From UHGV virus genome UHGV-1378817: DNA of 64,000 nt, one strand, 5' to 3'. A program made the translations under genes and the position numbers. The stretch is from a virus. The stretch's first letter is position 1; every line of letters starts with the position of its first letter. The notes beneath the pieces were generated by a model that was not told where the DNA came from, searched no databases, and saw only the letters and a list, made by a program, of their open reading frames with translations. Positions 10,751 to 23,112 of the stretch are shown one piece after another.

Positions 10751-10827
10751 TGGTCTCCACGGAGTGATTCGAACACTCGACCTCCTGATCCCAAATCAGG
10801 CGCTCTACCAAGCTGAGCTACGCGGAG
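10751..10827 (-). tRNA. tRNA-Pro (anticodon UGG)
   Basis: Cloverleaf read by hand: 7-bp acceptor, D arm GCTC/GAGC, anticodon arm CCTGA-TTTGGGA-TCAGG, T loop TTCGAAT, encoded CCA. Confidence 0.8.
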
Positions 10828-10838
10828 TATTTATTATT

Positions 10839-10913
10839 TGGTGGCCCTGGGTGGAATTGAACCACCGTCTGGCGATTATGAGTCGCTTGCTTGAACCTTC
10901 CAGCTACAGGGCC
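10839..10913 (-). tRNA. tRNA-Met or Ile2 (anticodon CAU)
   Basis: Acceptor GGCCCTG/CAGGGCC, anticodon arm GCGA-CTCATAA-TCGC, T loop TTCAATT, encoded CCA. Confidence 0.7.
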
Positions 10914-10914
10914 A

Positions 10915-10990
10915 TGGTGCTGATAGCAGGACTCGAACCTGCAACCTATTGATTACAAATCAATTGCACTACCAATTGTGCTACATCAGC
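10915..10990 (-). tRNA. tRNA-Thr (anticodon UGU)
   Basis: Acceptor GCTGATG, D arm GCAC/GTGC, anticodon arm ATTGA-TTTGTAA-TCAAT, T loop TTCGAGT, CCA. Confidence 0.75.
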
Positions 10991-10995
10991 AAAAA

Positions 10996-11094
10996 GGTGC
11001 TAGGTGATGGAATCGAACCACCTATGTATTCAACGACTACCTCGTCTATTTTCAGGATTAAAAATCCTCGCCCTTGCCAAAGGGCTTACCTAGC
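10996..11094 (-). tRNA. atypical long tRNA-like element (~99 nt; anticodon loop reads UUU with 4-bp stem; long extra arm)
   Basis: Acceptor GCTAGGT/ACCTAGC and canonical T arm GGTGG-TTCGATT-CCATC are clear; anticodon arm and a 30-nt variable region are non-canonical; 3' end ACC not CCA. Confidence 0.35.
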
Positions 11095-11192
11095 TCAGTA
11101 TGTTGACCATGTTGCTAGTCGGCGATGACGACTGTAACATTTGATAATCCGGTTCTGCTTCCGGCTTTCGCTTAATTACAAGGTCAACAATA

Positions 11193-11283
11193 TGGCTGAG
11201 GGTAATGGAATCGAACCATCATCGAGTCATCCTCAACGGGACGGTTTTCAAGACCGCTTGAGCACCATTGCTCCCTACCCTCA
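11193..11283 (-). tRNA. tRNA-Ser (anticodon UGA), type II
   Basis: Acceptor TGAGGGT/ACCCTCA, 3-bp D stem, anticodon arm GCGGT-CTTGAAA-ACCGT, long variable arm, T loop TTCGATT, CCA. Confidence 0.75.
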
Positions 11284-11397
11284 TTTATAAACAATACTGA
11301 TAATGACACTGATTTTCGAGCAGTTAGTGACTAGTATAAACGACGATAAATATCAATGCCATTATCTGTATGATTTATGCATTTAAAACTATAAATT

Positions 11398-11484
11398 TGG
11401 TGGGGAGTGGTGGAGTCGAACCACCCGAGTCGCAATGACAATAGATTTACAGTCTACACCGCTACCTCTACGGGATAACTCCCC
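11398..11484 (-). tRNA. tRNA-Tyr (anticodon GUA), type II
   Basis: Acceptor GGGGAGT/ACTCCCC, anticodon arm GTAGA-CTGTAAA-TCTAT, variable arm, T loop TTCGACT, CCA. Confidence 0.75.
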
Positions 11485-11488
11485 AATT

Positions 11489-11563
11489 TGGCACCCCGTA
11501 CTGGACTCGAACCAGTGTCAACGGCTTAGAAGGCCGCTGCTTTATCCACTAAGCTAACAGGGC
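11489..11563 (-). tRNA. tRNA-Arg (anticodon UCU)
   Basis: Acceptor GCCCTGT/ACGGGGT (two G-U pairs), D arm GCTT/AAGC, anticodon arm GCGGC-CTTCTAA-GCCGT, T arm ACTGG-TTCGAGT-CCAGT, CCA. Confidence 0.7.
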
Positions 11564-20860: not shown

Positions 20861-20923
20861 TCATTGACATAACCACACGGACGTGGTATTGTTACCTCAT
20901 AAGATGTTCAGGAGGGTTTAACC

Positions 20924-21130
20924 ATGAAAGATTTTCTGTTGGCAATTTTGTTCATGGCAGCATGTCTGTCCTGTGGTGTCGTGTTTGCAGGTGAAACAGC
21001 GTATCTTGTCGATGTGTATCGGGACAATGGTAAACGTATTTGCCTTTATGAGACAAGCCAAGGTGAGCTCTACGAGCTTGTGAAACAAGGCGAGGCAGGT
21101 TCCTGCCCTCGCACCCATTTCTTTGAATAA
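20924..21130 (+). CDS. small secreted protein
   Basis: 68 aa with N-terminal signal-peptide-like hydrophobic segment (LLAILFMAACLSCGVVFA). Confidence 0.4.
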   Translation: MKDFLLAILFMAACLSCGVVFAGETAYLVDVYRDNGKRICLYETSQGELYELVKQGEAGSCPRTHFFE

Positions 21131-21139
21131 GGGGGATAC

Positions 21140-21604
21140 GTGGAAGACGGACGTTTAATGAAGTCTGAACGCAGGCTTATTGTGCAACTGATCCCAGAAA
21201 CAGCTTGGTATAATAACCTCCGAAACGCTGTGAAGAAGAGTGAGTGGGATAAGATCCGTAAGAAGTGCTACAGAGAAGCCAACTACACTTGTGAGGTGTG
21301 CGGCGGTAAAGGCAGCAAACATCCAGTGGAATGTCATGAACTTTACACTTTCGAAGAGGGAGTGATCCGGCTTGTCGGACTGATAGCGTTGTGCCCAGAT
21401 TGTCACACATCTGTGCATCCTGGGTTAGCAAATATCCGTGGAAAGTATGCTCAGGCAGTTAGTCAGTTGGCTAAGGTGAATAAGATCACTAAGGGTATGG
21501 CAGAGGCGTATTACCGAGACTGCTTTGCAGAGTGGCGTGAGCTTAGTAAAGTTCCGGAATGGAAGACTGACTTTTCTTGGATACATCAGTATTTGGAGAG
21601 TTAA
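21140..21604 (+). CDS. HNH endonuclease
   Basis: CEVCG...HELY...CPDCH zinc-finger HNH pattern. Confidence 0.55.
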   Translation: MEDGRLMKSERRLIVQLIPETAWYNNLRNAVKKSEWDKIRKKCYREANYTCEVCGGKGSKHPVECHELYTFEEGVIRLVGLIALCPDCHTSVHPGLANIRGKYAQAVSQLAKVNKITKGMAEAYYRDCFAEWRELSKVPEWKTDFSWIHQYLES

Positions 21605-22461
21605 GTGTGGTATACTACAATGACAATGATAAAGATGCAGTTGCTTGGTTGAAGAATCTAATATCTTTAGGACTACTTCCTCAAGGCGAGGTGGATGATC
21701 GTTCTATTACAGAGGTTACTGTAGAAGATCTTAGAGGTTTCACTCAGTGGCACTTCTTCGCTGGCATAGGTGGATGGCCTTTGGCCTTGAAACTTGCTGG
21801 CATTCCAGAAACTTGGTCGGTATGCACAGGATCTCCGTGCTGCCAACCTTTCTCTCAGGCAGGTAAGCAACGTGGAAAATTTGACCCAAGACATCTTGCA
21901 CCAACATACCTCCGGCTCGTTAAACAGCTTAAACCTGAGTTCATGTTTGGAGAGCAGGTTGCAAAAGCGGTTGAATCTGGATGGCTCGACGATATGCAGA
22001 ATGAAATGGAAAACTCTGGTTACAGCTTCGGGGCTTCCATACTTAATGCTGCAATCCTCAACGCCCCGCACCGCCGCGAACGACTTTACTTCGGGGCAGT
22101 TAGCAACGTGGTTAACCCCTACGGTAACTCAGGTAGGGTGCAGATCTCAGGAAGCGATGGAAAGGCGCAAGCAACAACGCTTAGCAACTGGCAGGAAGTC
22201 ATTAAGTCCTGGGAATCTGTGGGAGCAGGTGAGGATGTATTACGGGTGTGGGAGCATACAAGACAGTATCTATGCCGAGACGGAAAATGGCGTAAACTTC
22301 CTGAACCCGGCATTCCCTTGTTGGTTGATGGGCTATCCACCCCAATGGGATTGTCTCGCCACAAAGGCTTCGGTAACGCTATAGTTCCGCAAATAGGGGC
22401 ACTTTGGGTGCAAGAGTTTATGAAGTCAGTGGATGATTGTGTAAGAGGTGAGTATGGCTAA
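21577..22461 (+). CDS. DNA (cytosine-5)-methyltransferase
   Basis: Motif I FFAGIGG, motif IV PCCQPFSQAG, ENV-like FGEQV, motif X GNAIVP; start uncertain (overlaps HNH gene by 28 nt). Confidence 0.75.
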   Translation: MDTSVFGELSVVYYNDNDKDAVAWLKNLISLGLLPQGEVDDRSITEVTVEDLRGFTQWHFFAGIGGWPLALKLAGIPETWSVCTGSPCCQPFSQAGKQRGKFDPRHLAPTYLRLVKQLKPEFMFGEQVAKAVESGWLDDMQNEMENSGYSFGASILNAAILNAPHRRERLYFGAVSNVVNPYGNSGRVQISGSDGKAQATTLSNWQEVIKSWESVGAGEDVLRVWEHTRQYLCRDGKWRKLPEPGIPLLVDGLSTPMGLSRHKGFGNAIVPQIGALWVQEFMKSVDDCVRGEYG

Positions 22462-22744
22462 GAAACCTGTAAAAGAGAAATTTGATAAGACAGCTTTTGT
22501 ATTCGATACACCTCTGGACGACATCATCAGAGGTATGCAATCCTTGTATCGGAAGGCTGAATCTGAGCAGTTGTCTGAATCAGAACTTTACTGGCTTGGT
22601 TGGTGGGAGTTAAACCTGCCTAAAGCTGAAAGTTCTTGTCTGAGAACTGTTAAAACGTGCGCCCAAGAAAACGCTGCACTTGGAATCTACCACAAAAGGA
22701 AAAGATCAACAAAAAGCTCTCCAAGAAAGACCAAAAAGTCTTGA
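22448..22744 (+). CDS. hypothetical protein
   Basis: 98 aa ORF with basic C-terminus. Confidence 0.4.
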   Translation: MSMAKKPVKEKFDKTAFVFDTPLDDIIRGMQSLYRKAESEQLSESELYWLGWWELNLPKAESSCLRTVKTCAQENAALGIYHKRKRSTKSSPRKTKKS

Positions 22745-22770
22745 CAAAAGTGTTATTAATCTGATATTAT
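22741..22770 (+). promoter_or_regulatory. sigma70-like promoter
   Basis: TTGACA, 17-18 nt spacer, ATATTA/TATTAT; upstream of 22804 gene. Confidence 0.55.
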
Positions 22771-22803: not shown

Positions 22804-23112
22804 ATGCTTAAAATTTTTATTGTTGAAGATAAAGATATTGTCCAGTTGTATGCAAACGAGAATCATAAAGGTATGATTCTGAAGAAGGCAAGCAACCTTC
22901 ATGAAAACACAATTCAACCTGGCGATGTAATTAAGATCTGTGGTTATATGATATCAGACTCCTTGATGAAAATAACCCACCACTGGGGGTCTAATCCGTT
23001 CCTTTTTGAAAAGTATTGGGATGTTGAGTCACTTATTGCAGAGAGTGATGATGCATTCCATTACAGCATCCAACCATCTTGCAGAATAACTAACAGGAGG
23101 GTCTTTGAGTAG
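22804..23112 (+). CDS. hypothetical protein
   Basis: 102 aa ORF after promoter and AGGAG SD. Confidence 0.4.
   Translation: MLKIFIVEDKDIVQLYANENHKGMILKKASNLHENTIQPGDVIKICGYMISDSLMKITHHWGSNPFLFEKYWDVESLIAESDDAFHYSIQPSCRITNRRVFE

Follow-up and report, generated by a model that had tools for sequence, protein, structure and literature searches.

A mobile cassette carrying an orphan cytosine-5 DNA methyltransferase gene at the 3' end of a core, predicted HNH nuclease gene of Vequintavirus phages

Introduction

The stretch of DNA studied here, 64,000 nucleotides (nt) of UHGV virus genome UHGV-1378817 and hereafter called the window, carries on its plus strand, at positions 21,140 to 22,461, a gene with HNH zinc-finger motifs followed at once by a gene for a cytosine-5 (C5) DNA methyltransferase (MTase) that ends at 22461. 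Such a neighbourhood raises the question of whether the nuclease and the MTase belong together. The initial annotation, made from the sequence, offered three answers: a compact restriction-modification-like pair, a homing endonuclease invading the MTase locus, or an orphan anti-restriction MTase with an extended N-terminal domain. Comparison of the locus with its relatives points to two genes that would be independent of each other within one early transcription unit, a core HNH gene and an accessory orphan MTase gene. The third answer therefore fits best, in that the MTase is an orphan, although not in postulating an extra N-terminal domain.

The methyltransferase gene is an optional, mobile cassette

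The window belongs to a Vequintavirus (rV5-like coliphage), and its locus is 97-98% identical to those of phages pangalan, CarlMeissner, HdK5 and Alma. The features on which the argument turns are the following, with lengths in amino acids (aa).

21140..21604, plus strand: core HNH (His-Me finger) zinc-finger gene, predicted nuclease, 154 aa, GTG start
21551..22453, plus strand: mobile cassette tract of ~0.9 kb, delimited by carrier-specific alleles and by its absence in relatives
21595..21600, plus strand: ribosome-binding site GGAGAG, 6 nt before the MTase start, read from the sequence
21607..22461, plus strand: orphan C5 DNA MTase gene, 284 aa, GTG start, identified by profiles, homologues and fold matches

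The two genes differ sharply in their distribution. All 121 close relatives have the HNH gene, whereas the MTase is found in only 4 of the 121 phage records that match the locus; the alignments of the other 117 fall into two pieces on either side of a gap of ~860 base pairs (bp). A tblastn search with the MTase returned 4 records at 95-99% identity and all others below 60% aa identity. The cassette tract, absent from rV5 and 116 other relatives, contains a replacement C-terminal tail for the HNH gene, a stop codon, a ribosome-binding site and nearly the whole MTase gene. The replacement tail covers the last ~17 HNH codons; at the protein level it departs from the rV5-type tail in the final six only. 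The left breakpoint lies at 21551-21556 and the right one between 22454 and 22463.

The sequences on either side of the cassette show that it sits on different backbones. The flanks of the window are closest to the MTase-free phages nom, JeffSchatz and RudolfGeigy (98.3-99.5%) and less similar to the four MTase carriers (96.0-97.9%), but across 21596-22461 just 10 positions separate the window from these carriers: nine in the MTase, of which six are synonymous and three non-synonymous, and one in the last HNH codon. Site by site, all alleles that separate carriers from non-carriers lie within 21556-22453, and at 21538-21550 and from 22464 on the window has non-carrier haplotypes. The MTase is an optional, horizontally mobile cassette on different Vequintavirus backbones. 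Neither a close relative of the MTase in IMG/VR (best match 60% over part of the length) nor a plausible donor among complete Escherichia coli genomes (two matches, 68% over 240 nt) was found.

The same site is occupied in a second Vequintavirinae lineage

The metagenomic contigs L003-L006 form a second Vequintavirinae lineage whose nearest GenBank relative is vB_EcoM_TH18. The L003-type MTase is 79.5% identical in aa to that of the window and stands directly after the orthologous HNH gene (59%) and before the exonuclease gene (56%), the eight other neighbouring genes with a match being 34-59% identical between the lineages. For the MTase, synonymous divergence (dS) between lineages is 0.59 and the ratio of non-synonymous to synonymous divergence (dN/dS) is 0.23 at 19% nt divergence, and synonymous sites of the HNH and exonuclease genes are saturated (proportion of synonymous differences, pS, 0.99 and 0.87). 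Since the flanking genes are only 56-59% identical, with saturated synonymous sites, the cassette was transferred horizontally. The MTase gene is absent from TH18 and its three GenBank relatives.

Alignment of L003 with TH18 locates the insertion. The two are 94.8% identical over the HNH gene as far as an AGTAAA site and 45% identical over the next 42 nt, and identity is back at 97.8% immediately after the MTase stop. The imported tract thus starts within the HNH gene in both lineages, in the same two codons ~50 nt ahead of the HNH stop, and in both the imported HNH tail is different yet authentic. In the second lineage, 13 of the last 18 nt of the MTase agree with the TH18 HNH tail, and a scan of 17,694 positions gave no second match of this kind; the MTase open reading frame (ORF) closes at the stop codon that the HNH gene uses in TH18. 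This relic of the tail, together with the shared stop codon, argues for insertion into the HNH tail and not for deletion. In the lineage of the window no HNH-tail relic was found at the MTase end beyond ATGGCTAA. There the ATG of the following, gp088-like gene overlaps the MTase stop (ATGGCTAA), and in MTase-free phages such as rV5 the identical ATGGCTAA overlaps the HNH stop instead.

In the history that we propose, a cassette would have recombined into the last ~17 HNH codons and supplied a substitute tail, a stop codon, a ribosome-binding site and the MTase ORF, which would thus end at the stop codon that terminates the HNH gene in cassette-free genomes and overlap the start of the downstream gene.

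The two genes do not overlap and belong to separate families

The ORF listing of the plus strand gives an ORF of 154 aa at 21140-21604 and one of 294 aa at 21577-22461, from which a 28-nt overlap of the two genes had been deduced. This overlap is an artefact of the longest-ORF start, TTG 21577. We prefer a start at GTG 21607, 2 nt past the HNH stop, which leaves no overlap: 53 MTase homologues begin with MNYYNEWD, which aligns to MVYYNDND at GTG 21607; the 80%-identical L003 copy has an ATG at the equivalent codon; the GenBank annotations (4 of 4) place the start at this codon; and the ribosome-binding site GGAGAG is correctly spaced for it, 6 nt upstream. Because the MTase starts here, its motif I is ~50 residues from the true N terminus and not about 60 as first noted, a distance that is normal for the family.

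The assignment of the ORF ending at 22461 to the C5 MTases was confirmed. The protein scores 72.7 bits against PF00145 (cut-off 22), matches phrog_363 at E 1.8e-59 over aa 2-278 and reaches 54.8 against TIGR00675, below the cut-off of 100.65. It has 5,029 homologues, a profile match to M.HhaI at E 2e-17, and M.HhaI and M.HaeIII as best Foldseek matches. Its motifs, all on the plus strand, are placed as follows.

21613-21624, plus strand: motif II-like YYND
21691-21708, plus strand: motif III-like VDDRSI
21754-21774, plus strand: motif I FFAGIGG, aa 50-56
21832-21855, plus strand: motif IV SPCCQPFS, aa 76-83
21949-21960, plus strand: motif VI GEQV
22066-22083, plus strand: motif VIII PHRRER
22372-22389, plus strand: motif X GNAIVP

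Motif I aligns with FAGLGG of M.HhaI; among 54 homologues F50, F51, G53 and G56 do not vary, and A52, I54 and G55 hardly do. E116, R157, R159, G256 and N257 are likewise invariant in the family, which shares two variants, N to Q in motif VI and Q to H in motif VIII.

The HNH gene called at 21140-21604 also stood up, on its CEVC...ECHE...CPDCHTSVH motifs, which follow the zinc-finger HNH signature CxxC...ECHE...CPDCHxxxH. The zinc ligands are C51, C54, C85 and C88 and the putative catalytic residues H66, H89 and H93, so that the protein has the catalytic His, the metal-binding His and the Cys4 zinc frame of a beta-beta-alpha-metal core. Its start at GTG 21140 is supported by the MEDGRL sequence kept in the diverged homologues P0123 and P0125. 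Only PHROG HNH families match (phrog_5200 at E 2.6e-71, phrog_119 at E 5e-13): against Pfam PF01844 the protein scores 13.9 bits, under the cut-off of 21.4, and Foldseek comparison of its model with the Protein Data Bank (PDB) gave nothing below E 0.4. The nearest characterised counterparts are HNH or His-Me finger nucleases such as the HNH domain of McrA, the HNH protein of phage GVE2, and the HNH domains of ZRANB3 and of group II intron maturases. A core gene of Vequintavirinae-type myoviruses, the HNH gene occurs in 240 phage records from several genera and keeps to one module in all of them; the records include members of the group from Salmonella, Cronobacter, Klebsiella, Pectobacterium and Enterobacter at 45-51% identity. 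The family is present as well in the replication modules of large phage-like contigs that are unrelated, some of them of jumbo size. The HNH protein is thus a predicted His-Me finger nuclease of a phage-specific family, independent of the MTase as judged by its occurrence. Its neighbour genes suggest that its role is probably in DNA metabolism.

The N-terminal segment of the methyltransferase appears to be a displaced motif II-III region

The segment ahead of motif I, first described as an extended N-terminal domain, turned out to be a family-wide segment that behaves as a displaced motif II-III region. The first 80 aa of the MTase match 3,025 representatives of 50% identity clusters at E<=1e-10, and in almost all of the best 150 of these the match begins within residues 1-12 of the protein. 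Conservation is high over the N-terminal 46 residues, among which Y3, W14, L15, G27, V29, D30, R32 and I34 are invariant.

Alignment of the family profile with M.HhaI pairs residues 36-67 with HhaI 2-33, the part with motif I and helix A, and residues 68-166 with HhaI 70-171, the part with motifs IV-VIII. The stretch of M.HhaI that contains motifs II and III, residues 34-69, is matched by nothing between motifs I and IV of the phage family. TIGR00675 and PADLOC PDLC03378 put MTase residues 2-5 at profile positions 24-30, just past motif I. In the AF2 model the motif I strand (47-49) is preceded by a strand at 2-4, a helix at 9-20, a strand at 28-30 and a helix at 39-42, and followed by a helix at 56-63 and the motif IV strand at 72-74, with pLDDT 81-92 across the region; the four strands expected before the catalytic loop are all present, in a changed order. 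We de-permuted the sequences in silico, so that in the window protein and two homologues the motif I segment (aa 44-67) came before residues 2-43. Their PF00145 scores rose from 72.4, 70.3 and 61.6 bits to 93.9, 91.0 and 84.1 bits, and a single alignment now ran unbroken over profile positions 5-165. With the N-terminal segment shuffled, the constructs scored 75.9, 75.4 and 68.5 bits, and the segment therefore adds 16-18 bits over the control, in motif II-III register, in three family members.

Some results weigh against this assignment. The N-terminal 46 aa alone have no PF00145 match in Pfam, a 19-sequence profile of the segment gave only chance matches among PDB sequences, and BLASTP of the segment against an M.HhaI sequence that had been checked in part aligned VYYNDNDKDA to VYSNEWDKYA at E 0.72. 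The segment alone is too short for detection, for which reason the assignment is built on the de-permutation and the profile coordinates. With support from sequence profiles and predicted secondary structure, and not from three-dimensional topology, the segment appears to be a displaced motif II-III region, the beta2/beta3 part of the fold that binds SAM. The canonical order I-II-III-IV...X would then be replaced by II-III-I-IV...X, with the fold retained.

No description of the II-III-I-IV order was found in the searchable literature, although REBASE curators may know it, and the arrangement is not among the types listed in a survey of permuted MTases (PMC5944983). That it represents a previously undescribed, non-circular topological class of C5 MTase, comprising thousands of phage and prophage enzymes, is a claim that we consider about evenly balanced between true and false.

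Alternative readings of the locus

A restriction-modification-like or addiction pair, in which the HNH protein would cut unmethylated DNA of the host or of a competitor phage and the MTase would protect its own genome, is extremely unlikely, because the HNH occurs without the MTase and the MTase family without the HNH. The obligate co-occurrence of nuclease and MTase that marks type II restriction-modification is missing from 117 of the 121 close relatives, where the HNH stands alone, as it does in all other Vequintavirinae genera. At ten loci with MTase homologues outside the two Vequintavirinae lineages (L007, L009-L017) there is no such HNH within 4-5 kb; at seven HNH loci in other phage lineages no MTase lies beside the HNH, nor are the homologues in large or jumbo-size contigs next to MTases; and McrA-like matches reflect the generic HNH core only. 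The same distribution reverses the polarity of the idea that a homing endonuclease invaded the MTase locus: the HNH is the fixed core and the MTase the sporadic insert, and the presence/absence variation typical of homing endonucleases is lacking for an HNH fixed in all 121 relatives. In a modified form of that idea, the HNH nuclease would actively home the cassette, cutting cassette-free alleles near the S-K codons ~50 nt before its own stop, and repair from a co-infecting carrier would copy a cleavage-resistant tail along with the anti-restriction MTase as cargo. Such homing would explain why two lineages with flanks too diverged for ordinary recombination (55-57% nt) carry the cassette at the same site, the HNH 3' end, with left breakpoints (21551-21556 in the window, after AGTAAA in L003) in the same two codons; why every cassette brings a new HNH tail, as expected of an allele that resists cleavage; and why the conversion tracts are short and sharp. 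We nevertheless judge it quite unlikely. The HNH is ~95-98% identical in both allele types, and self-targeting would cut its own genome in 117 of 121 relatives; the empty sites of the two lineages have no sequence in common beyond AGTAA, the breakpoint coincidence amounts to only two independent observations, the cassette is rare instead of sweeping, and the HNH family resides in replication modules of unrelated large phages with no MTase nearby.

A history of loss, in which the MTase would be ancestral to Vequintavirinae at this place and repeatedly lost by precise deletion without any horizontal transfer, agrees with the shared position in two lineages, and the shared stop-codon and overlap structure could be regenerated by deletion between two gene tails. 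It is very unlikely in view of the MTase dS, far below that of the saturated flanking genes, and of the 79.5% aa identity of the MTase as against 34-59% for the eight neighbouring genes with a match. Moreover, the backbone of the window is of the cassette-free type to within a few nt of the cassette on both sides, and the different authentic HNH tails of carriers and non-carriers, with the relic of the local tail that L003 keeps at its MTase end, point to insertion.

Predicted activity and function

Horizontal transfer of an intact gene leaves the question of what the MTase does. Its catalytic residues are all present (Cys79-Gln80, Glu116, Arg157, Arg159 and GNAIVP), and the ORF is intact in the window, in four GenBank phages and in the four L003-type loci examined (P0002 on 13 contigs). 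The dN/dS of 0.23 indicates purifying selection. Under the model that we favour, the MTase would be expressed early from the sigma-70 promoter at 20864 and would methylate cytosine C5 within a short sequence on replicating phage DNA; this methylation would protect the progeny from host restriction systems that cut that sequence. A likely cost would be exposure to methyl-dependent restriction, by which the patchy distribution of the MTase would be explained.

Several points counsel caution about this model. Both Vequintavirinae versions read SPCCQ, with a Cys in place of the Pro that precedes the catalytic Cys in the SPPCQ of 116 of 120 MTase relatives; Cys79-Gln80 itself is invariant. The target-recognition region between motifs VIII and X is short and hypervariable in the family, and in the AF2 model pLDDT is below 50 for aa 169-256. 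For pangalan, CarlMeissner, HdK5 and Alma we found no methylome or specificity data in the literature. In the raw data of the BASEL collection the carrier CarlMeissner plates no better than the non-carrier EmilHeitz on EcoRI, EcoRV, EcoCFT_II and EcoP1I, the efficiency of plating (EOP) being about 5e-4 on EcoRI and below detection on EcoRV, and the whole phage group has been described as exceptionally susceptible to restriction-modification systems (PMC8594841).

Equal plating on four type II and III systems, a Pro-to-Cys change beside the catalytic Cys that is nearly absent otherwise in the family, and a minimal, poorly ordered target-recognition region are what one would expect if the MTase were catalytically impaired, or had another role such as gene regulation, blocking of a non-restriction defence or modification of host DNA. 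We consider this unlikely: all catalytic residues are in place, a dN/dS of 0.23 has been maintained over 19% nt divergence with an intact ORF in all copies examined, and the restriction systems used are not known to overlap the target site of the MTase. What the plating data mean is that there is no broad protection; the systems tested need not sense C5 methylation at the MTase target. We thus favour, with reasonable though not high confidence, an orphan, horizontally mobile MTase whose likeliest function would be sequence-specific self-methylation against host restriction. The comparisons above show its gene structure, start codon, sporadic distribution, transfer and purifying selection; enzymatic activity on a target sequence and a benefit against restriction are predictions.

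The same two phages differ in another respect. On a wecB mutant, which lacks the enterobacterial common antigen, the EOP of CarlMeissner is 0.03-0.5 and that of EmilHeitz 0.001-0.005 (PMC8594841, supplementary file 7), a difference in receptor dependence that is unrelated to the MTase.

Transcription unit and genomic neighbourhood

The gene order of the locus is ligase, endolysin, promoter, small membrane protein, HNH, MTase, gp088-like gene, promoter, gp089-like gene and 5'-exonuclease. Besides the HNH and MTase genes, the unit is made up of these elements.

20864..20892, plus strand: sigma-70-like promoter TTGACA-17-TATTGT, from a promoter scan; equals annotated rV5 P90 at the homologous place
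20924..21130, plus strand: small membrane protein gene, 68 aa, first of the unit (phrog_4641, E 2e-28)
22454..22744, plus strand: gp088-like gene, 96 aa (phrog_6208, E 1e-45; junction alignments)
22741..22770, plus strand: next sigma-70-like promoter TTGACA-18-TATTAT, from a promoter scan, 11 of 12 matches; equals rV5 P93

The first gene is labelled as a transmembrane protein in the rV5, pangalan and HdK5 annotations. The promoter at 22741..22770 marks the end of the unit, and no terminator-like site was found on the plus strand between the 20864 promoter and 22741. With promoters flanking the unit and no plus-strand terminator between them, the HNH and MTase genes are probably co-transcribed, and the promoter at 20864..20892 is predicted to drive the membrane protein, HNH, MTase and gp088-like genes, probably as one unit.

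In rV5 and derived annotations the genes at 22454-22744 and 22804-23112 are called 'transposase-like protein' and 'transposase', respectively. These labels of the two genes downstream of the MTase have no Pfam or PADLOC support, the only matches being phrog_6208 for the gene at 22454-22744 and, for the gene at 22804-23112, a sub-threshold Pfam match to PRS2_N (E 0.0048, 17 bits against a cut-off of 27), and they look like annotation carry-over. A transposon origin, which the labels would suggest, was rejected for this lack of profile support.

Upstream of the HNH gene, the phages nom, RudolfGeigy, nimi and DrSchubert have an extra gene of 684-762 bp at the site that corresponds to 20861-20923 of the window, together with a different 3' end of the endolysin gene. 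The extra gene, at 2269-2952 in loci L022, L024 and L025 and at 2200-2961 in L023, is annotated as HNH or homing endonuclease. In the window and in rV5 this site, between the endolysin stop and the small membrane protein gene, is empty. A sporadic insertion resembling a homing endonuclease ~0.3 kb upstream of the core HNH makes the locus a hot spot for mobile genes. In more distant genomes, a 57%-identical MTase lies directly after a metallophosphatase gene on a 141-kb contig (L007, 3398-4852), and in another lineage (L031, 1743-3489) the slot after the homologous metallophosphatase gene holds an HNH_3 homing endonuclease and an HNH of the core type. MTases, homing endonucleases and this HNH family recur in the same variable slots of DNA-metabolism modules.

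Among the records that match the locus (20900-22700) at >=90% nt identity are 19 named 'Campylobacter phage', of which 17 give Campylobacter jejuni as host; the HNH of Campylobacter phage C2 is 96.1% identical at the protein level. These host labels look doubtful, or the samples contaminated. Elsewhere in the window, seven tRNA genes (Pro, Met, Thr, Ser, Tyr, Arg) are clustered on the minus strand at 10751-11563, among them a 99-nt ARAGORN call at 10996-11094 that has a four-base anticodon (atcc) and no amino acid assigned to it.

Discussion

The MTase shares with M.HhaI and M.HaeIII (PF00145) the FxGxG loop, the catalytic Cys of motif IV (preceded here by Cys and not by Pro), the Glu of motif VI, the RxR of motif VIII and the GN(A/S)(I/V)VP of motif X. 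It differs from them in what appears to be a II-III segment before I, with only ~15 residues from helix A to the motif IV strand, in reading EQV for ENV and HxRxR for QxRxR, in its short, hypervariable target-recognition region and in having no partner restriction enzyme. Natural exceptions to the I-to-X order are known: M.BssHII, M.Alw26I, M2.Eco31I, M.Esp3I and M2.BsaI are active permuted C5 MTases with motifs IX-X ahead of I-VIII (PMC5944983). The phage enzyme resembles them as such an exception, but theirs are true circular permutations, whereas II-III-I-IV...X is no rotation of the canonical order.

Orphan MTases set against host restriction are known from several phages, including the Dam/Dcm-type enzymes of T1-like Drexlerviridae, Dmt of P1 and the C5 methylases of Bacillus SPbeta and phi3T. 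The MTase studied here is like them in the lack of a cognate nuclease, predicted early expression, patchy distribution and presumed self-protection, and unlike them in that CarlMeissner, the one carrier tested, was not detectably protected against six laboratory restriction systems. In Drexlerviridae, too, no simple link between MTase genes and restriction resistance was seen (PMC8594841). The mode of movement recalls the seg and mob homing endonucleases of T4 and 'moron' cassettes, which share presence/absence polymorphism between near-identical genomes, precise insertion between genes or at gene ends, short co-conversion tracts and transfer between diverged relatives; here, however, the sporadic element encodes an MTase and not a nuclease, and the adjacent HNH is fixed in every genome. 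Were the HNH to home the cassette after all, this would be a homing system with a fixed nuclease and a spreading cargo.

These results correct the logic by which the locus was annotated, since there is no real overlap, no restriction-modification pair and no invading homing endonuclease. The rearranged motif order of a large MTase family is the most generally interesting by-product. If confirmed structurally, it would add a non-circular permutation to the known C5 MTase architectures, and if true it would explain why standard profiles cover only part of thousands of MTase proteins. For the phages themselves, the locus shows, in a clean natural case, how a gene of the anti-restriction type can pass from one lytic phage to another on a small cassette, with both breakpoints defined to within ~10 nt, in a group considered for therapy and known to be very restriction-sensitive. 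Public collections already offer isogenic-like natural pairs (CarlMeissner or pangalan against JeffSchatz, nom or nimi), with which both the benefit of C5 methylation to a phage and its cost, including exposure to McrBC, are directly testable.

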